Source of the DNA: an uncultured Candidatus Actinomarina sp.
GTDB lineage: Bacteria > Actinomycetota > Acidimicrobiia > Actinomarinales > Actinomarinaceae
Direction of reading: 5' to 3'
Assembly: GCA_902596545.1 (NCBI GenBank)
Contig: CACJUH010000001.1
Coordinates: 70,858 to 134,857 of the forward strand
Length of the DNA stretch: 64,000 nt
Position 1 is the first letter of the stretch. Every line of letters starts with the position of its first letter. Shown one piece after another: positions 22,805 through 55,693 of this stretch. The position numbers and the translations under genes were made by a program. A model generated the notes under the pieces. That model ran no database searches. It was not told the DNA's origin and worked only from the letters and a program-made list of their open reading frames with translations.

Positions 22805-23893
22805 ATGAAACAGATGGACAGAGGATACATTTTCGTAAATAAATCTCACTTAGTCAGCAATTTGAATTACTTAAGTGACCTTACAAAAAAAGAGTTGTGT
22901 CTGGTTGTGAAAGCAAATGCCTATGGACATGGTATTCAATGGACTGTAAAAACAGCTGAGGAGGCTGGAATTAGTTGGTTTGCTGTAGCATCTGTAAATG
23001 AAGCAATTCAAGTTAGGAATATTTCAAAAGGTGCCAGGATACTTTTATTAGCCGAACCTTCAAAATCTCAAATAAAAAATGTTTTAAAAAACGAAATAGA
23101 TTTGACCGTTTACAATGAAGAATTTATTGATGAATTAATTAATGTCGAAGGAAACCTCAATGTGCACTTAAAAGTTGACACTGGCATGCATCGCATAGGT
23201 TGTGAACCAGAAAATTTTGATAAATTAATGGAAAAAATTCAAACATCATCATTAAATTTAGTTGGAATTTGCACACATTTTCCAACTGCTGATACTGATG
23301 AACAATACACACAAAATGCTTTAAATTTGTTTAAAGCATTAATTAGTGGACACGATACTGATGGCTTATTACTACATGTAGACAATTCAGCCTCTAGTTT
23401 TTACAATTCTGATGATTCATTCAACATGACAAGAATTGGTTTAGCAGCATATGGTACACAAATTTCAATAAAAAATTATGATCACAATTTGATGCCAACA
23501 ATGGAAATTAAAACAAGAATCTCCAACTTACAAAAAAGAAATAAAGGTGACGCTGTTTCCTATGGAAAATCTTTTGAGCTAGAAAGAGATTCGACAATTG
23601 CAACAGCTCCAATTGGTTATGGTGATGGATACCCTTGGAACTCTTTTCCTGATGGTCATGTTTTAGTAAATAACAAAATTTGTAAATTGATAGGCAGGGT
23701 AACTATGGACCAAATTTTAATTGATGTAACTGATATAAAGGTCAAAGTTGATGATGAAGTAACTGTCCTAGGTAAATCTGAAAATGGACAGCATGAAATA
23801 ACAGTTACTGACATTGCACAATGGAATAAAACTATTGAATGGGAAATATTAACTAATATGTCAAGAAGGCTTGAGAGAATAGAAATTGAGTAA
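22805..23893 (+). CDS. alr: Alanine racemase
   Basis: 362 aa, PLP-lysine motif VVKANAYGHG. Confidence 0.92.
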   Translation: MKQMDRGYIFVNKSHLVSNLNYLSDLTKKELCLVVKANAYGHGIQWTVKTAEEAGISWFAVASVNEAIQVRNISKGARILLLAEPSKSQIKNVLKNEIDLTVYNEEFIDELINVEGNLNVHLKVDTGMHRIGCEPENFDKLMEKIQTSSLNLVGICTHFPTADTDEQYTQNALNLFKALISGHDTDGLLLHVDNSASSFYNSDDSFNMTRIGLAAYGTQISIKNYDHNLMPTMEIKTRISNLQKRNKGDAVSYGKSFELERDSTIATAPIGYGDGYPWNSFPDGHVLVNNKICKLIGRVTMDQILIDVTDIKVKVDDEVTVLGKSENGQHEITVTDIAQWNKTIEWEILTNMSRRLERIEIE

Positions 23894-26793: not shown

Positions 26794-28434
<1,641 letters not shown>

Positions 28435-28458
28435 CCAAGTTACATTCTAGACTTTAAA

Positions 28459-28488
28459 AAAGAGTGGACATTGTTCCACTCTTTTTAT
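28459..28488 (+). terminator. Rho-independent terminator after groEL
   Basis: agagtgga-cattgt-tccactct hairpin followed by TTTTTAT. Confidence 0.7.
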
Positions 28489-28504
28489 ATAGTAAACAAA
28501 TATT

Positions 28505-28849
28505 ATGAAAAGCATACGTGGAGCAATCGCAGTTGTAGAAAATACGGATGAAGGCATTGTTAATGCTTCAAAATCTTTAATAAATTCAATAATGAATGTA
28601 AATAGCTTAAAAGAAGAAGATATTGTCTTTGCTTTGTTTACAGTAACAAAAGATTTAACTACTGCATTTCCTGCAAAAGCTTTTCGAGAGTTAGGAATGA
28701 TGTCAATTCCAGCATTGGATGCAAAAGCACCAGAAATTCAGAACGATTTAGATGGCTGTATAAGGATATTAGTTACTGTAAACAATGATATTAAAGATAT
28801 ACAACATGTTTATTTACAGGATGCAAAGAAACTACGACCAGATAGATAA
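28505..28849 (+). CDS. aroH: Monofunctional chorismate mutase, AroH class
   Basis: 114 aa, similar throughout to B. subtilis AroH (SIRGAIAV, AFPAKAFREL, CIRILVTV, HVYLQDAKKLRPD). Confidence 0.8.
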   Translation: MKSIRGAIAVVENTDEGIVNASKSLINSIMNVNSLKEEDIVFALFTVTKDLTTAFPAKAFRELGMMSIPALDAKAPEIQNDLDGCIRILVTVNNDIKDIQHVYLQDAKKLRPDR

Positions 28850-28879
28850 AAAATTATTTGTAAAACAAAATACTCTGCT

Positions 28880-28936
28880 ATGATATTTCTAATGAAGTTA
28901 AACAACACATACTTTTACTTTAGAGAGCACATATAG
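28880..28936 (+). CDS. Candidate attenuation leader peptide rich in Tyr/Phe codons
   Basis: MIFLMKLNNTYFYFREHI*, with tandem TAC-TTT-TAC-TTT codons at 28910-28921. An alternative start is ATG 28892 (MKLNNTYFYFREHI), which may be leaderless. Confidence 0.5.
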   Translation: MIFLMKLNNTYFYFREHI

Positions 28937-28937
28937 G

Positions 28938-28988
28938 TTGCCCTAAAGTATGTTGTGTGAAATCGGGCAAAGGCCCGATTTTTTTTTA
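28938..28988 (+). promoter_or_regulatory. Attenuator: antiterminator/terminator alternative structures upstream of the DAHP synthase gene
   Basis: Terminator atcgggc-aaag-gcccgat plus T9 at 28962-28988. Segment ttgccc (28938-43) is complementary to gggcaa (28965-70) in the terminator's left arm. acatacttt (28907-15, inside the YFYF codons) is complementary to aaagtatgt (28945-53). Confidence 0.55.
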
Positions 28989-28999
28989 TAGGAGGAAAA

Positions 29000-30013
29000 T
29001 TGATAGTAGTAATGAATCAATCTTCAACAGAAGAAGATATAGAAAAGGTAAAAGAAAAAGCAATACAGCAAGGTCATGAGCCTTTAGTTATCTATGGTGT
29101 TGAGAGAAGCGTCGTAGCTGTAAGTGGAAAGGTAAACGATGACCATAGAGCAGTTATGAAGCTACTGCCAAATGTTAGTCGTGTAATACCTGTTGGAAAA
29201 CCATATAAACTTGCTAGTAGAAATTATCAAAAAGATGATTCAGTTATAGCTATCAAAAATTTATCAATTGGTGGTCAACAATTAGCAATAATTGCAGGTC
29301 CAGATAGTGCTGAGACACAAGAACAAACAATAGAAACTGCATTAGCTGCAAAAGAGGCAGGTTCAAATGGTTTAAGGGGTGGTGCCTTTAAGCCCAGAAC
29401 GTCACCTTACAGTTTTCAAGGACTTGGAGAAGACGGACTTAAGATGCTAAAGGAAGCCTCCGAAATAACTTCATTACCTTTGTTTAGCGAAATAATGGAT
29501 GCTCAACATTTATCTATGATGGAAAAGTATGTAGACGTTCTTCAAGTGGGAGCAAGAAATATGCAAAATTTTAAATTACTTGAAGCAGTAGGTGAATCAC
29601 ACTTACCAGTTCTTTTAAAAAGAGGACTATCTGCAACTCTGGATGAGCTTCTGTTGGCTAGTGAATATATTCTTTCTAGGGGAAACGAAAATGTCATGCT
29701 TTGCGAGCGAGGCATAAGAACCTATGAGACAGCTACTAGAAATACATTTGATATAAATGCAATACCTTATCTAAAGCAAAACAGCCATCTTCCTATTATT
29801 GCAGATCCAAGTCATGCAACCGGCGATAATAAGCTTGTTGAACCAGTAGCTTTAGCAGCTATAGCTGCTGGAGCAGATGGTTTATTGATTGAGATTCATC
29901 CAAGGCCTGATGAAGCTCTGTGTGATGGTCCTCAAGCATTATTACCAAATGAATTAAAAACCTTAATTGATAAAACATCAATTGTTGCAAAGGCGGTAGG
30001 AAGGTCAGTCTAA
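29000..30013 (+). CDS. 3-deoxy-7-phosphoheptulonate (DAHP) synthase, type I-beta (KDO8PS-like) with an N-terminal regulatory domain
   Basis: 337 aa, KPRTSPYSFQG motif, similar to T. maritima and B. subtilis AroA(G)-type DAHPS. Apparent TTG start 4 nt after AGGAGG. Confidence 0.85.
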   Translation: MIVVMNQSSTEEDIEKVKEKAIQQGHEPLVIYGVERSVVAVSGKVNDDHRAVMKLLPNVSRVIPVGKPYKLASRNYQKDDSVIAIKNLSIGGQQLAIIAGPDSAETQEQTIETALAAKEAGSNGLRGGAFKPRTSPYSFQGLGEDGLKMLKEASEITSLPLFSEIMDAQHLSMMEKYVDVLQVGARNMQNFKLLEAVGESHLPVLLKRGLSATLDELLLASEYILSRGNENVMLCERGIRTYETATRNTFDINAIPYLKQNSHLPIIADPSHATGDNKLVEPVALAAIAAGADGLLIEIHPRPDEALCDGPQALLPNELKTLIDKTSIVAKAVGRSV

Positions 30014-30853
30014 ATGATTAATAAAGTTCACATAATTGGCATGGGTTTAATGGGTACCAACCTTGGTATTAAGCTTGTTGAAAAAGGATTACAGGTTAGT
30101 GGGGATGATACTTCGAAAAGCAATCTAGACAGAGCTAAAAAGTATGATGCAATAAATTTGAATCATAATCTTGATACAGAGTACGATTTAACAGTACTTG
30201 CAATGCCTATAAATGAAATTATCTCAAGTTTGAGAGATTCTAAGATTGAAATTAACTCGAAAGTTTTAATTGATCTTGGTGGAACGAAAGAAATTATTTG
30301 TAGACATATGGACGAAAGTAAAATTCCTTCCTTTGGTGGTCATCCACTATGTGGAATTGCTGATAACCAAACTTGGGACCCAACTCCAGAAATGTACAAT
30401 CAAGCTCCTTTTTTATTATGTGAAACAGAAAGTTCAACAAATGAAACAAAGAATATAGTAAGTAATTTTGTAGAACTAATAAATTCGAAACCAATTTGGA
30501 TAGATTCTAAAAAACACGATGAATTAATTTCCTTAACGAGTCACTTGCCGCATATATTAAGCTCTGCTCTTGTTTCTACAGCTATGCAAAAACACGAGAT
30601 GGATGAATTGCTAGATTTAGCTTCAGGAGGTTTTGACGGAGCAACAAGGTTATCAAGAACTTCTCCGAATATGATATCTGACATGTATTTAACAAACGAT
30701 TTGAACGTTAAAACTTTAATTAAGGAGTTAATCGAAGAATTAGAAAAGATTATCTTAATAGAAGATCAAGAATTAATGCTTAATTATCTATCTAAAACAG
30801 TTGACTGGCGTCGAGCATTGGCTGATAAATTTGGAGAAAGAAAATTAAAATGA
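30014..30853 (+). CDS. tyrA: Prephenate or arogenate dehydrogenase
   Basis: 279 aa, N-terminal GMGLMG Rossmann motif, conserved catalytic His region (HPLCG). Confidence 0.82.
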   Translation: MINKVHIIGMGLMGTNLGIKLVEKGLQVSGDDTSKSNLDRAKKYDAINLNHNLDTEYDLTVLAMPINEIISSLRDSKIEINSKVLIDLGGTKEIICRHMDESKIPSFGGHPLCGIADNQTWDPTPEMYNQAPFLLCETESSTNETKNIVSNFVELINSKPIWIDSKKHDELISLTSHLPHILSSALVSTAMQKHEMDELLDLASGGFDGATRLSRTSPNMISDMYLTNDLNVKTLIKELIEELEKIILIEDQELMLNYLSKTVDWRRALADKFGERKLK

Positions 30854-32121
30854 GAAGCAGAATTGTTGGCGAAGTTAATATAGTAGGTGACAAATCTATT
30901 TCGCATAGAGCTATAATTTTATCTTCACTAGCTTCTGGTAAATCTATGTTGTCTAATGTATTAATCTCTGGTGATACAAAAGCAACAATAAATATATTTA
31001 AAAATCTAGGTGTTGAGATTAATGAAATTTCAAACAATCAATTAGAAATTCATGGTGTCGGTTTAAATGGATTGAATGAATCAAAGGAACCGCTTAATGC
31101 TATTAATTCTGGCACAACTGCAAGACTTCTTATAGGTCTTCTTTCAAAACAAAAATTCGAAAGTGATTTAATAGGTAGTACTCAACTAAACAAAAGACCA
31201 ATGAGTAGGGTAATTGATCCTTTAGTCAATGAAGGTGCCAAAATTTCAGGTAATAGAGGTAGCCTTCCCATAAAAATTAAACCTTCAGATTACTCCTTTG
31301 AAAACATTCATTCAACTAAACCAAGCGCACAGGTAAAAAGTAGTTTTCTACTTGCTAGTTTATATCATAAAGCACCAACTACTATCTCTGAAATAGTACT
31401 AACCAGAGATCACACAGAAAGAATGCTGAGTCTAATGGGTGTTAACATTGTAAGACTTGGAAATACTTCTACTGTTGCCCCAATAAATGAAATAACAAGT
31501 ATAGATTATTTAGTTCCAGGAGATCCTTCATCTGCAGCATTTTTGATTGCTATAGGATTGTTGAAGAGCAAAAAAGTTGTAATCAAAAATGTTTTATTAA
31601 ATGAGAGAAGAATTGGGTTTTTAAAAGTTCTAAAAAGAATGAATGCTGATATTTTATTGGAAAATATAGAAAATTTTCAAAACGAACCAGTTGGAGATAT
31701 TGTAGTTAAAAAATCAAAACTTCAAGGTGTTACTATCGATGGTTCTGACGTGGTTGATATGGTAGATGAAATTCCAATATTTACACTCTTAGCATCTCAA
31801 GCAGAAGGTATTACAAAGGTAATAGGCGCTCAAGAATTAAGAGTCAAGGAGTCTGATCGTTTGGCAGCTATGGAAAATTTTATAAATGAACTAGATGGTG
31901 AAATTACTACTTTCGAAGATGGTTTTGAAATAAATGGTAAGCAAAATTTACAGAGTGGAGTAGTAGAAACTCTTGAAGACCACCGAATAGCAATGACTGC
32001 TGTCGTAGCAAATATATGTATAGATTCACAGATTAAAGCAGACAATATTGATTGTATAAGCGATTCATATCCGGATTTTTTTTACGACTTAGAAAAAATT
32101 GGAGCGAATTATGAATCTTAA
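30850..32121 (+). CDS. aroA: 3-phosphoshikimate 1-carboxyvinyltransferase (EPSP synthase)
   Basis: 423 aa, GDKSISHRAIILSSLA motif. Confidence 0.93.
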   Translation: MRSRIVGEVNIVGDKSISHRAIILSSLASGKSMLSNVLISGDTKATINIFKNLGVEINEISNNQLEIHGVGLNGLNESKEPLNAINSGTTARLLIGLLSKQKFESDLIGSTQLNKRPMSRVIDPLVNEGAKISGNRGSLPIKIKPSDYSFENIHSTKPSAQVKSSFLLASLYHKAPTTISEIVLTRDHTERMLSLMGVNIVRLGNTSTVAPINEITSIDYLVPGDPSSAAFLIAIGLLKSKKVVIKNVLLNERRIGFLKVLKRMNADILLENIENFQNEPVGDIVVKKSKLQGVTIDGSDVVDMVDEIPIFTLLASQAEGITKVIGAQELRVKESDRLAAMENFINELDGEITTFEDGFEINGKQNLQSGVVETLEDHRIAMTAVVANICIDSQIKADNIDCISDSYPDFFYDLEKIGANYES

Positions 32122-32905
32122 GCTTGGAATTGTAGGTTGGCCACTTACTAAAACATATTCACCATTAATTCATAAACTTCTAGGTGAGTTTTTAGGAATA
32201 AATGTTGAGTATCAAAAAGTTCCAATAGAAAATCTGGATAGACAAAAAATTCAAGATGTTAATTCAAAATTTGATGGTTACAATATTACAGTTCCACATA
32301 AAAACAAAATAATTGAATTAATAGAAAATACAGATGGTTACTTGCCTGATCACCACGTAAAAGAATTAGGCATTTGTAATACAATTAAGTTAGTCGATAA
32401 TAATATCTATGCATTCAACACTGACATAGAGGGAATAAATAAAACCTTAGAATCAATTTATACAAAAATTAATAATAAGAATTTCTTAATTTTAGGTAGT
32501 GGTGGAAGTTCAAAAACAATTGAGTATTTATTTAAGGAACACAATACAGTACAAATAGCTTCTAGGGAGCCTAATTTGGATTCCATTTCATACAATGAAA
32601 TAAATGATATAGCTCCAAAAATAGATATATTAATTAACACAACACCTATAGGAATGCCACCTTTTGAAGAGGAGAGCCTAAATATTCCATTCGATCAATT
32701 CAACAATTTAGAAGTATTTTTCAATCTGGGTTATAACGTTAAAGAAAACTTTACATCTAAATTTTCAGAGGATGTCATTAAAATCGATGGAATAAAAATG
32801 TTAATTACTCAAGCAGTTGCTTCTTTTAACATTTGGGCAGACTCAGAAATCAAATTAGAAGATGTGTACCATAACATAACAGAAAGGCTAAAAAATGAAA
32901 ATTAG
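32111..32905 (+). CDS. aroE: Shikimate dehydrogenase
   Basis: Trimmed to MNLKLGIVGWPLTKTYSPLIH. GSGG NADP-binding motif. Confidence 0.88.
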   Translation: MNLKLGIVGWPLTKTYSPLIHKLLGEFLGINVEYQKVPIENLDRQKIQDVNSKFDGYNITVPHKNKIIELIENTDGYLPDHHVKELGICNTIKLVDNNIYAFNTDIEGINKTLESIYTKINNKNFLILGSGGSSKTIEYLFKEHNTVQIASREPNLDSISYNEINDIAPKIDILINTTPIGMPPFEEESLNIPFDQFNNLEVFFNLGYNVKENFTSKFSEDVIKIDGIKMLITQAVASFNIWADSEIKLEDVYHNITERLKNEN

Positions 32906-34076
32906 ATATCTTACTGCTGGCGAAAGTCATGGACCAGAACTCACTGCAATTTTAGAGGGTATTCCATCTAATTTCATAGTCACAAAAGAATACATTGATA
33001 GTTTTTTATCCAGAAGACAAAAGAGCCTTGGTTCTGGAGGAAGGATGAACATTGAAAAAGATGAGGTATTAATTTCTTCTGGAGTAGTAAACAACAAAAC
33101 TACTGGTGGCCCAATTGCTTTAAAAATTATCAATAGAGATTGGAATAACTGGAAAGATAAAGAAGTAGAACCTTTTGTAGTACCACGTCCAGGACATGCT
33201 GACTTAGTTGGCACATTAAAATATAACCACGAAGATATACGGATCGCGTTGGAAAGAGCAAGTGCACGTGAAACAGCAATAAGATGTGCGGTTGGAGCTA
33301 TAGCCCACCAAATCCTTGATCAGTTAAATATTTCGATAATTGGTTTTGTTTCATCCATAGGAAAGCAAGAACTTGATGTATCAAAATTTATAACCGATAC
33401 AGATTTGAAAGATTCCATTTACAATTCAGAAGTTTCATGTCCAGATGAAGAGACAAGTAAATTAATGATTGATGAAATAAAGTCTGCAAGGAAGAAAAAA
33501 GATACTTTAGGAGGTTCAATAACTTGCGTAGCTAAAAATTTTCCACCCGCTTGTGGTAGTTATGTACATTTTGATCGCAAACTTGATGCAATTATTTCTT
33601 CGTCAATGATGTCAGTACAAAGTGTAAAGGCGGTTGAAATAGGAGATGGATTTGATTCTTCCAAAAAATTTGGAACAGAAGTACAGGATCAAATTGTTTT
33701 AAATGAAAAAAAAGTTGAGAGAATTACAAATAATTTAGGTGGTTTCGAAGGTGGAATGACAACAGGCGAACCTATTGTTGTTACAAGTTATTTAAAACCG
33801 ATTAGCACAACTTTGACACCAATAAAAAGTGTAAACCTTGTAGAACAAGCAGAAACAGAAACAAATTATGAAAGATCTGATACTTGCGCAGTTCCAAGAG
33901 CAGTACCAATATTTGAAAGTGTATTCTCAATTGATTTATTAAATTCACTGTTAGAAAAGACTGGTGGAGACTCAAAGGAAGAAATCCATTCACGAGTTGT
34001 GAAACTTCAAGAATTTACTATTGATGATATTTCACTTTCAAATAAAAATTGGAACATGAAATATGAAAATGAATAA
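32895..34076 (+). CDS. aroC: Chorismate synthase
   Basis: 393 aa, [24 protein letters not shown] signature. Confidence 0.93.
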
Positions 34077-34560
34077 ATGTTACTATTTGTCTGGCTTCAT
34101 GGGTGTAGGTAAATCTACTATTCTCAAAAAAATAAAGGAGAGTACTCAACTTTCATGTATAGATCTAGATGCATTAATCGCAGAAAAACACGGTCCTATC
34201 AATGAAATTTTTGAAATAAATGGTGAAGATTACTTTCGTAAGCTGGAGGAGAAAGAGTTTTTTCTTATTAAACCGGAATCCAACCTTGTTGCATTAGGCG
34301 CAGGTGCATTAACAAACAACAATATTTACAAATATATATTAGATAACAAAACAGGTATATATCTAGAAGAAGAATTTCAGACATTGTGGTCAAGAATCCA
34401 AAATTCTGACAGACCGTTAGCAAAATTAGGACACGATTATGTTGAAGATTTATTTAATAATAGAAAAGCAAGATATGAAAATCTGCATATAAAAATTACA
34501 AAATCTAACTTAAATGATGTTATTAATTCGATACTCGATATATTGGCTGGAAAAAAATGA
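34063..34560 (+). CDS. aroK: Shikimate kinase
   Basis: 165 aa, [10 protein letters not shown]-loop. Confidence 0.88.
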
Positions 34561-35549
34561 CAAATAATATATATTTGAAAACTAATTTAGAACTTATAGA
34601 ATATTTAAATTCACGATTCTCAGATGAGTCTCTTTTTATCATTGATTCAAATTTGAATAACCTCAAAATTGACGAGCAAGTTAATGCTCAGGTTTCTTAT
34701 TTTGACATTAATGAAGAAACAAAAAACTTGACGTCAGTAGAAAAAATTTGGGATTTACTTTTTCAACACAATTTAAATCGATCAAGTGAAATAGTAATTA
34801 TTGGTGGTGGTGTTCTATTAGATGTGTGTGCGTTTGCATCAAGCACATTTAAAAGGGGTGTTTCGTTTACGTTTGTTCCTTCAACGCTTTTATCAATGGT
34901 TGATGCATCTCATGGTGGAAAGAATGGATTTAATAATACATATGGTAAAAATCAAATTGGTACTTTTACTCTCCCGGAAAGTGTCATTGTTTGCTATCAA
35001 TTACTGGATACTTTGCCTGAAGATAATTATAAAGATGGTCTTATAGAACTAATCAAACATGGAATGATAGCTAATGAAAAAATATTCAATTCTATGATTA
35101 CAAAAACGAGTTTCAATGTTGATTTTGAAATAATAAGAGAAGGTATTGATGTAAAGCTCAAAATTGTCAGTGAAGATTTTTTGGAGGGTGATAAAAGGAA
35201 ATTATTAAATTTTGGACATACGGTGGGACATCTAGTTGAGAAAGACTCTAATTATGAAATTACTCATGGCCAAGCAGTAGCCATAGGTATTTATTACGAA
35301 CTCTTAATTTCAAAAGAGCAATTGGGTCTACCTAAGGAAATTATTGATTCGTATTTAAACTACTTAAATCAAATTGAATATGATTACGAATACAACTTTT
35401 TATCTAATAGTGAAAAATTAATTGAAATGTTAAAACATGACAAAAAGAGTAATGCAAAAGGAGTCGATATAGTTCTGCTGTATGAAATAGGTAATCCAAA
35501 AGTGATTAATCTAACATTTAATGAAGTAATAGAGGTGATTCAGCATTAA
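34557..35549 (+). CDS. aroB: 3-dehydroquinate synthase
   Basis: 330 aa, [22 protein letters not shown]-binding glycine motif, HG...H metal ligands. Confidence 0.9.
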
Positions 35550-35982
35550 AAAAATATATATTATTAATGGTCCAAATTTAAATTTCCTAGGAATAAGAGA
35601 GTTGGAGAAATATGGTGAAACTGATTACACAACTCTTTTAAAGTTACTTGATAACAAAGCAAAAGCATTAGATATTGAGATTGAACATTTTCAATCAAAT
35701 GTTGAGGGAGAATTAGTTAACTTTATTCAATCGATTCATGATTCACTTGACTCTTGGGTAGTAATCAACCCAGGTGCTTTTACCCATACAAGTATCGCTT
35801 TGAGGGACGCTTTAAATACACTAAGTGCTCAAAATAAAATTATTGAAGTTCATATATCAAACATTGAAGAACGAGAAGATTACAGAAAATTTAATCTAAT
35901 CAAAGAATTTTGTGAAATTTCGATAATAGGTGAGGGCATAGAAGGATATTTTCAAGCATTGGATTATATAAATGACAAATAA
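35545..35982 (+). CDS. aroQ: 3-dehydroquinate dehydratase type II. The true start codon is non-canonical (ATT 35545 or ATA 35554)
   Basis: In-frame upstream of the first canonical start (TTG 35602), the sequence encodes [25 protein letters not shown]. This is the conserved type II DHQase N-terminus with its essential Arg and Tyr. The frame has no ATG, GTG or TTG between the aroB stop and 35602. Confidence 0.75.
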   Translation: MKKIYIINGPNLNFLGIRELEKYGETDYTTLLKLLDNKAKALDIEIEHFQSNVEGELVNFIQSIHDSLDSWVVINPGAFTHTSIALRDALNTLSAQNKIIEVHISNIEEREDYRKFNLIKEFCEISIIGEGIEGYFQALDYINDK

Positions 35983-36793
35983 TTTTAAGATTGCGTATCA
36001 AGGCTCAGAGGGTTCTTATTCGGAAGAGCTGCTAAAAAAAGAATTTTCAAATTATTCTTTTATTGCCTGTGAAAGTTTTACAGAGTTACTTAACAAAGTT
36101 AGTAGTGAAAGTTGCCTAGGCCTCTTACCAGTAGAAAATTCAATTGCAGGTACTGTTAATGAGGCTTACGAAGAATTAATCAATAGTGGGTTAGAAATAT
36201 TTGGAGAATTTATTAAAAAGATTGATCATACTTTAATAGGTCTTTCAAATTCTAAGTTTGAAGAAATTACTCATGTGATTTCACATCCACAGGCATTACA
36301 ACAATGTAGTAAATTTCTACAAGATTCAAAGTTAAGAATTACACCGGTTTTTGACACTGCAGGAAGCGTTTTTGAAATATTGGAAACAAAAGACATTAAT
36401 ACAGCAGCAATAGCAGGGGAGCACTTTAAAAACGATGAACGATTTAAGATTCTTAAAGAAAATATTTCAAACCATCAAGAAAATTTCACTAGATTTCTCT
36501 TAATTGGGAATGAAAAATTGGAATCCAATAAAGAAAATAATAAATATTCATCTGTACTTATTTCAGATGATAAACCAGGTTCATTACTTAAAGCACTCAA
36601 TATATTTAGCGATCTTAATATAAACTTAACAAAACTTGAATCAAGGCCAATATTAGGAAGGCCTTGGGAATACAAGTTTTATATCGATTATGAACTTCAA
36701 AATGTAAAAACACAAATGGAGCTTATAGATGGAATAAAAAAAGTTTCAAAAGAATTTATTATTTTAGGACATTACCCAAAAGCTAATCCTTAA
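35972..36793 (+). CDS. pheA: Prephenate dehydratase with a C-terminal ACT domain
   Basis: 273 aa, PDT domain plus ACT (GSLLKALNIFSDLNINLTKLESRP). Confidence 0.9.
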   Translation: MTNNFKIAYQGSEGSYSEELLKKEFSNYSFIACESFTELLNKVSSESCLGLLPVENSIAGTVNEAYEELINSGLEIFGEFIKKIDHTLIGLSNSKFEEITHVISHPQALQQCSKFLQDSKLRITPVFDTAGSVFEILETKDINTAAIAGEHFKNDERFKILKENISNHQENFTRFLLIGNEKLESNKENNKYSSVLISDDKPGSLLKALNIFSDLNINLTKLESRPILGRPWEYKFYIDYELQNVKTQMELIDGIKKVSKEFIILGHYPKANP

Positions 36794-39637: not shown

Positions 39638-40398
39638 ATGAGAAATCTTTCTACAATAGTTGTAGCAATTGAAATAAATGATAAATAATAAAGAAGATAG
39701 GACTTTTTAAATTCTCTTTTCTTAAGTTCAATTGAACCGTTAAAACCTCTTGATATCATTGAGTTATAAACTCTTTCACCTCTTTCATACCCTCTTATCA
39801 ACATTGCACCAGAAGCATATGCAATTGGTTTTAATCCCCTTAATCCTTTTTGATCATAACCTCTTGATTTCATAGCAACTTTAACTCTTTTAAATTCATC
39901 AATAAAAACATCAATATATCTAATTGCAAAAGATAATATTGAAATTAACAACGGTGAAATTTTTAATTTTTGCAAACCATAAATAATCTCAATATTTGAT
40001 GTAGTAGCAGTTAAAACAATTGCTAACGAAACACACAGTGTAATTTTAATTAATATTGAAATCATTTCGTTGAAACCAGTTTCATAAATAGGCAATGAAA
40101 AAAATTCAAACATAACAGTACTGTCTCCCTTACTTAAAAAAGGGAGAAATAAAGCAAACAGTACAAAGGGTATATCGATTGAAAGTCTTTTAAAATATGT
40201 TGATATTTTTATTTTAGATAAATACAACAACAATAATACAACGAAAGTTTGTACAACTATTGCTAAATTTTTCTCAAGGCTTAAAAAAGCAATAGACAAA
40301 ACAATTATAAATGTTGTTGCAATTTTGATTTCAGGTCTGATATTGCTGAGAACAGAGTTACTGTGAATTTCTAGATGATGAGAGTGTGTTGTTTCCAT
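39634..40398 (-). CDS. ECF transporter transmembrane T component (CbiQ/EcfT-like)
   Basis: 254 aa, 5-6 TM helices, C-terminal AMKSRGY...IRGYERG motifs typical of CbiQ/EcfT. Confidence 0.75.
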   Translation of the reverse strand: METTHSHHLEIHSNSVLSNIRPEIKIATTFIIVLSIAFLSLEKNLAIVVQTFVVLLLLYLSKIKISTYFKRLSIDIPFVLFALFLPFLSKGDSTVMFEFFSLPIYETGFNEMISILIKITLCVSLAIVLTATTSNIEIIYGLQKLKISPLLISILSFAIRYIDVFIDEFKRVKVAMKSRGYDQKGLRGLKPIAYASGAMLIRGYERGERVYNSMISRGFNGSIELKKREFKKSYLLYYLSFISIATTIVERFLI

Positions 40399-48832: not shown

Positions 48833-50974
48833 ATGTCATTGGATTCTAATTTACCGGAAGACTGGAAAAAATTACTAAACCCAAGTCAGATTCAAGCCAT
48901 AGAAACAATTAATGGACCTGTATTAATAATGGCAGGAGCAGGTTCAGGTAAAACTAGAGTATTGACTCATAGGTATGCCCATTTAGTAAAACACCATAAT
49001 GTAGACGTTGAGCAAATATTGGCTATTACATTTACAAATAAAGCAGCAGAAGAAATGAAATCAAGAATAAGTAAGCTTCTTAATTTAAAAATTTCACCAA
49101 AGTGGATATCAACTTTCCATAGTTTGTGTGTAAAAATTTTAAGAATCCATGGAGATAAGATAGGTTACAAAAGCAACTTTACTATTTACGATCAATCTGA
49201 TTCAAATAAAGTGATTAGGAATTGTATGTCTGAAAACAATGTTGACCTTAAACAATATTCACCAAAACGTTTCCAGGCACATATATCTAATCTTAAGAAC
49301 AGCATGATAAGCCCTGGGGAGGCACTAGAGAATGCAGAATCTTTTTTTGAAGTAAAAGTTGCCGAAATTTATTCAAGCTATGAAAAAAAATTAATAATTG
49401 CTAATTCAATGGATTTTGATGATCTTTTAATTAAAACTGTAGAACTTTTACAAACAAATGAAAGCATTTTGAAGTTTTGGTCTAATAAATTTCAATTCAT
49501 CATGGTTGATGAATACCAAGATACAAATTTTGTACAATACAAATTAGTTGAGCTTCTTGGTTCAAATAATAAAAATGTTTGTGTAGTTGGAGACTCGGAT
49601 CAAAGTATCTATGCATTTAGGGGTGCGGATATTAGAAATATTATTGAATTTGAAAAAGATTTTAGTAACGCAACAGTTATTCAACTAGATAAAAACTACA
49701 GATCTTCTAAAAAGATTCTTAATTTAGCTAACTCAGTCATATCTAATAATCCACGAAAAATTGAAAAAAATCTTTGGACTGATAACGAAGATGGTTTAGA
49801 TATTTCATCATTTAGATTTAGATCTGAAAAAGATGAAGCAAGATGGGTTGCAGAAGAAGTTAAAAACCTAATAGATTCATCCAAAGAGAATGAGGTTGCA
49901 ATTTTTTATAGAACCAATAGCCAATCACGTTTATTTGAGGAAGAACTAAGAATGTTAAATATTAATTATAAAGTCATTGGCAGTGTGAGATTTTATGACA
50001 GAAAAGAGATTAAAGATATAATCTCATACCTACAATTTTTAGTTAATGATAGTGATACAGTTGCATTTGAAAGAATTGTAAATGTTCCAAGGCGAGGAAT
50101 AGGAGAGTCTACTGTAAAAAAAATAAGGATATATTTAAATGAAACAGGAAAGTCTATATTTGAAGCACTGGAATCAATAGAGGAGATTAAAAATATTTCT
50201 CCACGAATTAAAGGAAGTCTCTCGGAATTTAAAGATTTAATTACTGAACTAAAGTCCTATTCGCTTCAAGGTCCCTCGAAAACAATCCAAAACGTTTTGG
50301 AGCTTACAGGATATAAAATGAGTTTGATTAAAGAAGGTACACTAGAGTCACAAATGCGCATAGAAAATATTGAAGAACTTCTAAATTCCGCATTTAGTTT
50401 TGAGAATTTGTATGAAGAAGAAATTGATGAACCTTATGGAATGCTCAGAGATTACTTAGAATCCATTGCCCTATTTTCTGAAACTGATAAATTAGAAGAT
50501 GCTGATAGAGTTTTGTTGATGACTCTACATAACGCAAAAGGCTTGGAGTTTCCATATGTATTTATGACTGGAATGGAAGAAAATTTATTTCCGCATGAAA
50601 GAAGTTCTCAAGGAGATAACTCTGAAATTGAGGAAGAAAGAAGACTTTGTTATGTTGGAATAACAAGAGCTGAAAAAAAGCTTTATTTAACTCATTCGTG
50701 GTCAAGGACACTTTGGGGTGGCACAGTTTATAATTTACCAAGCCGTTTTCTAGAAGAGGGTTCTAGTCATTTTGATACTGTAGATTTTTCACTTGATACT
50801 AAACAAAAAGACTCTACTCAGCTTGAAGTTGGTACAGGTCAAAAAATAATTCATGAAAAATATGGAGAAGGGCTTGTTTTAGAAGTTCAGGGAAATGAAA
50901 TAACTGTTCAATTTAATGATGATATTGGAGTAAAGTATCTTGATGTAGAATGGGCACCCATAAAATTTCAATAA
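48833..50974 (+). CDS. pcrA: ATP-dependent DNA helicase PcrA/UvrD
   Basis: 713 aa, AGAGSGKTRVLTHR Walker A, SF1 helicase motifs. Confidence 0.92.
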   Translation: MSLDSNLPEDWKKLLNPSQIQAIETINGPVLIMAGAGSGKTRVLTHRYAHLVKHHNVDVEQILAITFTNKAAEEMKSRISKLLNLKISPKWISTFHSLCVKILRIHGDKIGYKSNFTIYDQSDSNKVIRNCMSENNVDLKQYSPKRFQAHISNLKNSMISPGEALENAESFFEVKVAEIYSSYEKKLIIANSMDFDDLLIKTVELLQTNESILKFWSNKFQFIMVDEYQDTNFVQYKLVELLGSNNKNVCVVGDSDQSIYAFRGADIRNIIEFEKDFSNATVIQLDKNYRSSKKILNLANSVISNNPRKIEKNLWTDNEDGLDISSFRFRSEKDEARWVAEEVKNLIDSSKENEVAIFYRTNSQSRLFEEELRMLNINYKVIGSVRFYDRKEIKDIISYLQFLVNDSDTVAFERIVNVPRRGIGESTVKKIRIYLNETGKSIFEALESIEEIKNISPRIKGSLSEFKDLITELKSYSLQGPSKTIQNVLELTGYKMSLIKEGTLESQMRIENIEELLNSAFSFENLYEEEIDEPYGMLRDYLESIALFSETDKLEDADRVLLMTLHNAKGLEFPYVFMTGMEENLFPHERSSQGDNSEIEEERRLCYVGITRAEKKLYLTHSWSRTLWGGTVYNLPSRFLEEGSSHFDTVDFSLDTKQKDSTQLEVGTGQKIIHEKYGEGLVLEVQGNEITVQFNDDIGVKYLDVEWAPIKFQ

Positions 50975-55664: not shown

Positions 55665-55693
55665 AAAGACGGCAAAAGCCGTCTTTTCTTTTT
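55665..55693. terminator. Bidirectional rho-independent terminator between hup and a convergent minus-strand gene
   Basis: aaagacggc-aaaa-gccgtcttt hairpin flanked by T runs on both strands. Confidence 0.75.

Follow-up and report, generated by a model that had tools for sequence, protein, structure and literature searches.

The 64,000-nucleotide stretch of DNA analysed here (the window, to which all coordinates refer) belongs to Candidatus Actinomarina, a marine, uncultured member of the Actinomycetota and not a Firmicute, and has a GC content of 33%. Between the gene aroH and the gene for DAHP synthase, the first gene of an operon for phenylalanine and tyrosine biosynthesis, it carries an element which is, with a probability of about 0.8, a ribosome-mediated leader-peptide attenuator that senses charged tRNA-Phe and tRNA-Tyr. 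As modelled, the design of the element is the compact, leaderless style typical of Actinobacteria, combined with the classical layout in which four RNA segments pair as 1:2, 2:3 and 3:4. The reading is built on a short open reading frame (ORF) with clustered Tyr and Phe codons, on an intrinsic terminator directly before the first gene, and on distances from the aromatic codons and from the stop to a GCCC motif that are kept in the Actinomarinales relatives.

Relatives were collected with a scan of one genome per species using the DAHP synthase protein, which yielded 48 loci of Candidatus Actinomarina and other Actinomarinales at 72-99% protein identity, while the next-best DAHP synthase matches, at about 53% identity, come from other phyla. 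Alignment and folding statistics refer to 36 unique leaders and promoter counts to 49 sequences, i.e. the window and its 48 relatives; the most divergent locus is referred to as L043. The sequence anatomy can be read directly in silico: an ATG, four to five in-frame Tyr/Phe codons, a stop codon by a GCCC motif and a terminator are kept as a whole arrangement in 48/48 loci. A preliminary description of this DNA had named, as a finding that would count against attenuation, relatives that keep the hairpin but lose the Tyr-Phe-Tyr-Phe codons or the ORF; when this was looked at, all 48 loci were found to keep both. A single match to the core motif was obtained in the window, where 0 are expected by chance, and one in each Actinomarinales locus; a second copy is seen neither in the window nor in the loci of the relatives. 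Among 31 loci from Chloroflexota, Planctomycetota and others, an aromatic leader upstream of DAHP synthase was found in none (0/31).

The leader ORF lies between the promoter and the operon's first gene, and its translation is predicted from a leaderless geometry. After ATG 28892 the codons read AAG TTA AAC AAC ACA TAC TTT TAC TTT AGA GAG CAC ATA TAG, so that the aromatic codons and the stop (TAG 28934-28936) are indeed present where the preliminary description had placed them. The ORF that it had put forward, with 18 codons from ATG 28880, is rejected, as its ATG is part of the -10 hexamer and most relatives do not have it. The shorter leaderless version that had been mentioned as a fallback, which uses ATG 28892 in the same frame, is the conserved one, with an equivalent of 13-15 codons in 48/48 relatives. 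The consensus of the leader peptide is M-K-x-N-(N)-T-[Y/F]-F-Y-F-[R/S/G]-[E/A/L]-H-I-stop, the first aromatic codon comes 15 or 18 nt from the ATG, and differences in length are whole codons. In L043, one codon fewer upstream and one extra Phe codon are combined with a frame shift after the run; the leader still has five in-frame aromatic codons, and its stop overlaps the GCCC.

The amino acids for which the clustered codons stand (four to five consecutive Tyr/Phe) are those made by the operon, which includes both tyrA and pheA. Across the 36 unique leaders, no codon other than TAC, TAT or TTT occurs at the four aromatic positions, whereas the flanking positions swap their amino acid (T/A/S/V before the run, R/S/G and then E/A/L after it). 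Where TAC changes to TTT, a pair of the outer helix described below is broken without compensation and the aromatic identity of the codon is retained. The six frames of the window hold 40 runs of at least four Tyr/Phe codons, so the run alone is not significant in this AT-rich DNA; the evidence is the position and conservation of the run and not the run itself.

The mean pairwise identity is 0.93 in the aromatic codons and 0.94 in the terminator, 0.88-0.89 over the segment that extends from the Arg codon as far as AAAGUA, and lowest, at 0.70, in the spacer. At third codon positions the identity is 0.75 in the leader, 0.47 in aroH and 0.52 in DAHP synthase, and the leader is more conserved than even the second codon positions of aroH. 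This pattern of identity, third positions included, implies that the leader is constrained both as codons and as RNA.

Table 1. Positions of the promoter, leader, RNA segments and genes of the putative Phe/Tyr attenuator in the window.
Feature	Position	Strand	Basis or remark
-35-like element, weak, TTTGTAA (TTGCAA or TTGGCA in relatives)	28857-28863	+	position kept in 49/49
Extended -10, TGcTATGAT (TGnTAnnAT)	28876-28884	+	49/49 sequences
Leader ORF, MKLNNTYFYFREHI and TAG, 14 codons	28892-28936	+	ATG invariant in 49/49
Outer helix, 5' arm ACACA.AC	28905-28912	+	pairs with 28952-28958 in the minimum free energy (MFE) fold
Regulatory codons Tyr-Phe-Tyr-Phe (TAC TTT TAC TTT)	28910-28921	+	kept as Tyr/Phe codons in all relatives
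Segment 1, protector 5' arm UACUUUAG.G.GCAC	28916-28930	+	MFE and centroid folds, RNAalifold
Segment 2, protector 3' arm G.UGCCCUAAAGUA	28937-28950	+	holds UUGCCC 28938-28943
Outer helix, 3' arm GUUGUGU (GU.UGUGU)	28952-28958	+	within the variable spacer
Segments 3 and 4, terminator hairpin GAAAUCGGGC-AAAG-GCCCGAUUUU	28959-28982	+	10 pairs, 5 of them G-C
T-run, 9 T	28979-28987	+	sequence; conserved in the alignment
Shine-Dalgarno AGGAGG (28990-28995) and TTG start (29000) of DAHP synthase	28990-29002	+	sequence
aroH, monofunctional chorismate mutase	28505-28849	+	NCBIfam TIGR01796, 102.8 bits
Putatively controlled operon: DAHP synthase, tyrA, aroA, aroE, aroC, aroK, aroB, aroQ, pheA	29000-36793	+	NCBIfam, 9/9 genes

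The promoter of the leader is recognised mainly by its -10 element. A TGn motif together with a TAnnAT hexamer is found in 49/49 sequences, with the hexamer reading TAAGCT in one locus and with the rows of L002 and L005 assigned by eye, and the element ends 7 nt before the leader ATG in 37 sequences, 8 nt in 11 and 6 nt in one. The preliminary description had proposed a sigma-70-like promoter, of which the -10 box has held up; the -35 box as given there leaves a spacer of 15 nt, which becomes 16 nt if the box is taken as TTTGTA 28857-28862, and in general the -35-like element lies 15-16 nt upstream of the -10. None of the 49 sequences has a GGAG, GAGG or AGGA within 20 nt upstream of the leader ATG. 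The geometry of the -10 box would place the start of transcription at or next to A28892, and the leader mRNA is probably leaderless, with its 5' end at ATG 28892. A leaderless leader is plausible here because the host is an actinobacterium, and attenuator leader peptides in these bacteria are typically leaderless; in Corynebacterium glutamicum, leaderless mRNAs make up 33% of all mRNAs.

Elsewhere in the window, the predicted gene starts of several long ORFs, at 22814, 37908 and 47823 on the forward strand and at 40398, 42979 and 37856 on the reverse strand, have no Shine-Dalgarno sequence (SD) and are preceded, at a distance of 6-8 nt, by a TAnnnT box. These starts point to frequent leaderless mRNAs in this Actinomarina genome.

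The leader RNA is predicted to form two hairpins. When free, 28892-28990 folds at -30 kcal/mol, compared to -15.8 +/- 2.7 kcal/mol for shuffled sequences (z = -5.2), into a protector hairpin and the terminator, and RNAalifold on the 36 unique leaders returns the same protector core and terminator. Segment 1, which is almost invariant, consists of the Tyr-Phe-Arg-Glu-His codons, i.e. it contains the second Tyr-Phe, and pairs with GCCCUAAAGUA (28937-28950). As the protector thereby pairs regulatory codons with segment 2, the GCCC (28940-28943), which is invariant in the 36 unique leaders, is sequestered from the terminator. The preliminary description had offered a further pairing, ACAUACUUU:AAAGUAUGU. 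Considered as a protector, it is possible in the window and broken in many relatives by TACGT and TTACG variants; it is rejected and superseded by the pairing of 28916-28930 with 28937-28950 and an outer ACACA:UGUGU helix.

The terminator has its core, ATCGGGC-AAAG-GCCCGAT, at 28962-28979, and a terminator scan extends the hairpin as listed in Table 1. The hairpin and its nine T, proposed earlier, are thus both present, but the end position given for them, 28988, is one base off, since the T-run stops at 28987 and 28988 is an A. In all relatives, the hairpin lies within -12.7 to -15.7 kcal/mol. The antiterminator would form between UUGCCC 28938-28943, which is its 5' arm, and GGGCAA 28965-28970, its 3' arm; the GCCC:GGGC part is invariant, and the flanking U-A pairs exist in 33/36 and 25/36 leaders. 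All three pairings are predicted in 36/36 unique leaders, with invariant helices and with 4-6 bp for 2:3.

Masked folds with the ribosome in different positions show when each pairing is available. On the full-length transcript, the terminator is in the MFE structure whatever is masked and the antiterminator never appears, which implies that the switch must be kinetic. Masked equilibrium folds of the complete leader were therefore discarded as a route to the antiterminator, which is obtained by co-transcriptional truncation alone. With a ribosome that sits on the last Phe codon and masks the RNA to +12 or +15, UUGCCC:GGGCAA is the MFE structure for 3' ends from 28970 to 28976, at -7.3 to -9.3 kcal/mol, a stage at which the terminator's 3' arm is still to be made. 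The same truncated test gives the antiterminator as MFE in 36/36 unique leaders (-5.8 to -10.7 kcal/mol). These folds support the TTGCCC:GGGCAA antiterminator of the preliminary description, as well as its claim that a ribosome at the stop codon masks it, as the folds yield no antiterminator in that position. In the absence of a ribosome, the protector persists in folds of the growing transcript. For stalling on the Tyr-Phe-Tyr-Phe codons, the folds thus give the antiterminator with the ribosome on the last Phe codon; with the ribosome on the first Tyr or Phe codon, the window is predicted to form a local hairpin that competes with it.

The spacings are in agreement with such a switch. In the 36 unique leaders, the stop codon is 3 nt from the GCCC (-1, i.e. 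overlapping, in L043), and the last aromatic codon is 17-18 nt from it. The footprint of a ribosome reaches about 12-15 nt past the A-site codon, and the fixed spacings would fit this footprint: a ribosome at the stop should mask segment 2 and one stalled on the aromatic codons should leave it free.

From these observations we infer the start site, translation of the ORF, stalling and an effect on read-through, and the following sequence of events is proposed. Transcription would start at or next to A28892, 7 nt past the extended -10 TGcTATGAT, and a ribosome would bind the 5'-terminal AUG directly and translate MKLNNTYFYFREHI. When Phe and Tyr are plentiful, this ribosome would reach the stop codon at 28934-28936 and cover the GCCC at 28940-28943, which lies 3 nt beyond it; should the ribosome have left by then, the protector (28916-28930:28937-28950) would re-form. 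Either way, GGGC 28965-28968 would be left to pair with GCCC 28973-28976, the terminator would form, and the terminated transcript, of about 96 nt, would end at about 28985-28988. With charged tRNA-Phe or tRNA-Tyr in short supply, the ribosome would stall on codons 7-10 (28910-28921), with segment 1 held in the ribosome and segment 2 bare. UUGCCC 28938-28943 could then pair with GGGCAA 28965-28970 as soon as the latter is made, which would delay the terminator and allow the polymerase to read into DAHP synthase, tyrA, aroA, aroE, aroC, aroK, aroB, aroQ and pheA.

Several results weigh against this attenuation model. The -35 element is weak, and for this reason a scan for consensus promoters missed the promoter. 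The antiterminator is short, with four invariant G-C pairs and one or two A-U pairs that are lost in some species; it closes a loop of 21-24 nt, and at -6 to -11 kcal/mol it is far weaker than the terminator at -13 to -16 kcal/mol. To this must be added that masked folds of the full-length transcript always favour the terminator and that the local hairpin competes when the ribosome is on the first Tyr or Phe codon. As the protector, the antiterminator and most of the terminator are invariant, independent support by covariation is almost absent: in the protector 96.6% of the cells are paired without variation; in the terminator 95.8% are paired, with one compensatory change from U-A to G-C in L043; and in the outer helix 79% are paired, with one covarying pair (CG 22, UA 8, UG 2, AU 1). 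One compensatory terminator pair and one covarying outer-helix pair are the total, so that covariation, as read from this alignment, neither supports nor contradicts the key helices. Lastly, the invariance of CAC-ATA-TA(G/A) is unexplained by attenuation. This stretch (28928-28936; columns 37-45 of the alignment) encodes His-Ile-stop and forms the loop of the protector; in the 36 leaders it varies only synonymously (CAT in 3 sequences, ATT in 1), and His-Ile is kept in L043 despite the shifted frame. A second functional layer in the His-Ile-stop/ACAUAUA loop may be imagined, but is doubtful: the peptide or the context of the stop could hold back the release of the ribosome and so set the timing of the decision, a factor could recognise the loop, or the terminated RNA of about 96 nt could act in trans as rnTrpL does.

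Three other explanations of the element have to be weighed. The simplest would be that the hairpin is a leaky terminator of aroH, with a chance ORF in AT-rich DNA before it and constitutive partial read-through into the downstream genes. Between aroH and the hairpin no further terminator is seen, the chance frequency of Tyr/Phe runs (40 in six frames) makes an accidental run easy to obtain, and another terminator of the window, at 2078-2106, likewise stands directly before a gene start, so that a terminator with no promoter after it is not confined to this site. What this explanation leaves unaccounted for is an invariant ATG with in-frame aromatic codons in 48/48 loci at up to 28% protein divergence, the fixed spacings, the -10 box 6-8 nt before the ATG, and a leader conserved above the second codon positions of aroH; it is very improbable. 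The conservation of nucleotides beyond the need of the peptide (third positions at 0.75, an invariant ACAUAUA loop) could instead point to a switch that is set by a trans factor on UACUUU-UACUUU and the loop, be it a protein of the TRAP or PyrR type, an unknown ligand or a tRNA, with translation being irrelevant. The tandem UACUUU repeat could be a binding site, and the string GCACAUAU is kept in L043 in another frame. However, in 11/36 unique leaders the first UAC is changed to UUU, which destroys the repeat and keeps an aromatic codon, and the ATG, the frame and the position of the stop are all conserved. No Rfam family reaches its gathering score here, no T-box or riboswitch is among the weak matches at E up to 10, a leader of about 96 nt is too short for a T-box, and no candidate regulator gene was seen beside the operon, with the immediate neighbours covered. 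A trans factor is thus an unlikely basis for the switch.

A further reading accepts that the ORF senses Phe and Tyr but holds that the output is not, or not only, the antiterminator: the protector could act through pausing or stability, or the RNA of about 96 nt could act in trans. The weakness of the antiterminator and the preference of all equilibrium folds for the terminator speak for such an output, and the unexplained loop and His-Ile-stop leave room for an extra function. Small RNAs (sRNAs) that derive from attenuators and have roles in trans do exist, as described in PMC6614838 for rnTrpL in Sinorhizobium. Against it, neither a target nor another copy of the motif was seen in the window or the loci, and the classical model already accounts for the geometry. 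Moreover, a weaker antiterminator is usual in classical attenuators and works by forming first, as is the case in the trp attenuator of E. coli, where the antiterminator is weaker than the terminator. An output of this kind is therefore given little credence, and ribosome-mediated attenuation by competing hairpins remains the preferred explanation.

The genes around the element agree with its proposed role. NCBIfam confirms the identities of all ten genes from aroH to pheA that the preliminary description had named, and also bears out its view of an operon for the Phe/Tyr route without trp genes, which fits a mixed Tyr/Phe sensor; no trp gene was found in the operon by NCBIfam. The attenuator had been placed before a ten-gene operon, but aroH is upstream of both the leader promoter and the attenuator, so that nine genes, from DAHP synthase to pheA, would be under its control and not ten. 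These nine genes overlap or run contiguously, and the DAHP synthase is of the TIGR01361 type (B. subtilis / KDO8PS-like) according to NCBIfam. Its ribosome binding site follows 2-8 nt after the T-run in all relatives, with an SD of AGGAGG or AGGAGA in every one of them. A promoter between the terminator and DAHP synthase was considered and rejected, as there is no room for it and no conserved -10; the intrinsic terminator (10 pairs and nine T, with the ribosome binding site from 28990) is thus followed by the first gene without a promoter of its own. Because the ribosome binding site stands directly after the T-run, expression of the operon needs read-through of the terminator.

Within the operon, aroQ has no ATG, GTG or TTG at the start expected from the alignment of its protein family (35545-35602, forward strand), and the first canonical start, TTG 35602, lies downstream of the codons for its conserved N-terminus. 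Translation likely starts at ATT 35545, which overlaps the stop of aroB (cATTAA) and would be a non-canonical start with translational coupling to aroB.

In the Actinomarinales relatives, aroH always adjoins the leader. Neither a reading of the sequence nor a terminator scan found a terminator between aroH and the leader hairpin, and the attenuator hairpin probably also ends the transcripts of aroH. Upstream of aroH, the groEL terminator, a hairpin AGAGTGGAC...GTCCACTCT with a T-run that is readable on both strands (28461-28505, given on the forward strand), overlaps a promoter-like TGGACA-17-TATAGT which ends 11 nt before the aroH ATG. This ATG has no SD, and some relatives have a -10-like TATCAT 8 nt before it, which suggests that aroH may be leaderless. 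The arrangement of groEL terminator and promoter-like element is kept in the relatives and the stems covary (GAGTGGAC, GAGCGGAC, GGTGGAC). In L016, a run of N in the metagenome-assembled genome covers the end of groEL, the terminator and the start of aroH (about 2417-2514) and is an assembly artefact.

Searches for known RNA families give no other assignment for the element. At gathering scores, only glmS and RF03531 reach the threshold of Rfam in the whole window, and Phe_leader stays below its gathering score everywhere in the window. With E up to 10, no leader family is found in 28850-29000 and no T-box, leader family or riboswitch in 28300-29200, where the weak matches are chance ones caused by the groEL terminator. 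A megablast search for 28400-29100 among plasmids returned nothing and is uninformative. Of the two matches above threshold, the glmS ribozyme/riboswitch is full-length (RF00234, 20443-20590, forward strand, 86.8 bits against a gathering score of 37), presumably with the glmS gene downstream. The other, RF03531 (n00280, 'Clostridioides difficile sRNA included into helicase gene'; 50603-50704, forward strand, 69.4 bits against 65.2), probably reflects a conserved helicase coding sequence and not an sRNA.

Two more terminators of the window stand close to genes. At 2078-2106, both strands have T-runs at a strong 11-bp hairpin, and about 12 nt after it come GGAAAAAATG and an ORF which looks, by eye, like ribosomal protein S10; the operon that follows has no room for a promoter of its own. 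The terminator at 55665-55686 was considered as a second attenuator and rejected, since it follows an ORF ending in ...AAFKAAKGLKDALN*, which is HU-like by eye only.

Candidatus Actinomarina is among the smallest free-living marine bacteria, and its genome is streamlined. If the attenuation model is true, this organism would tune a costly aromatic pathway to supply, presumably by uptake from seawater, via a cis element of about 96 nt and not via a regulatory protein. The ratio of leader to operon reads would then mark limitation of Phe and Tyr in ocean metatranscriptomes, and mixed Phe/Tyr leaders of the aroR type would extend from Corynebacterium to a distant, low-GC actinobacterial order. 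The element would also provide a compact, natural leaderless attenuator for studying the coupling of transcription and translation.

The closest known case is the aroR/aroF attenuator of C. glutamicum. Three papers (PMC11802643, PMC4046766 and PMC3890552) which refer to Neshat et al. 2014 describe an aroR leader with Phe-Tyr-Phe upstream of aroF, where transcription goes up as ribosomes stall upon Phe limitation. Both elements are found in Actinobacteria and combine a short mixed Phe/Tyr leader with an operon led by DAHP synthase. In contrast to aroR, which has three aromatic codons, the Actinomarina leader has four to five and would control the whole nine-gene Phe/Tyr route including tyrA and pheA; the aroR element is supported by experiments, while the one described here is predicted from sequence. 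The AroF of C. glutamicum is of another DAHP synthase subfamily than the TIGR01361-type enzyme of Actinomarina. An independent origin of the two leaders seems likely; the comparison covers, on the side of aroR, the peptide motif Phe-Tyr-Phe.

Leaderless leader peptides as such are well represented in this phylum, with trpL, ilvL and leuL of Streptomyces lividans and the ilvB leader of C. diphtheriae; the ilvB leader of C. glutamicum is leaderless too, according to the title of Morbach et al. 2000. In actinobacterial leaders of this kind the transcription start site is the start codon, there is no ribosome binding site, the peptides have 12-18 residues, and hairpins and a U-stretch come after many of them. 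The geometry from -10 to ATG in Actinomarina fits this pattern, with the difference that the trpL, ilvL, leuL and ilvB leaders sense Trp, Leu, Ile or Val and the Actinomarina leader would sense Phe and Tyr. No aromatic (Phe/Tyr) leader for Streptomyces is given in the literature covering the leader peptides of S. lividans, and a literature search for Actinomarina together with leader peptides or attenuators found nothing relevant.

The mechanism proposed here is the one of trpL and pheL. The pheL-pheA attenuator of E. coli shares a Phe-rich leader, alternative hairpins and an intrinsic terminator before a gene of Phe biosynthesis. It uses Phe codons only, has an SD and a longer leader RNA, and controls pheA alone, whereas the Actinomarina element is probably leaderless, has about 96 nt and mixes Tyr with Phe. 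T-boxes, with which low-GC Gram-positives usually sense amino acids at aro, phe and tyr genes, also make read-through of a terminator respond to tRNA charging. They do so with an RNA sensor that binds the tRNA instead of a translated ORF and need roughly 200 nt or more, compared to the leader of about 96 nt described here, and no Rfam match to a T-box was obtained in the window. The Actinomarina element thus adds a new member to a class of switches already known and changes no concept. What sets it apart is that about 96 nt from the start to the T-run, with four to five mixed Tyr/Phe codons, stand before a complete Phe/Tyr route in a streamlined genome.

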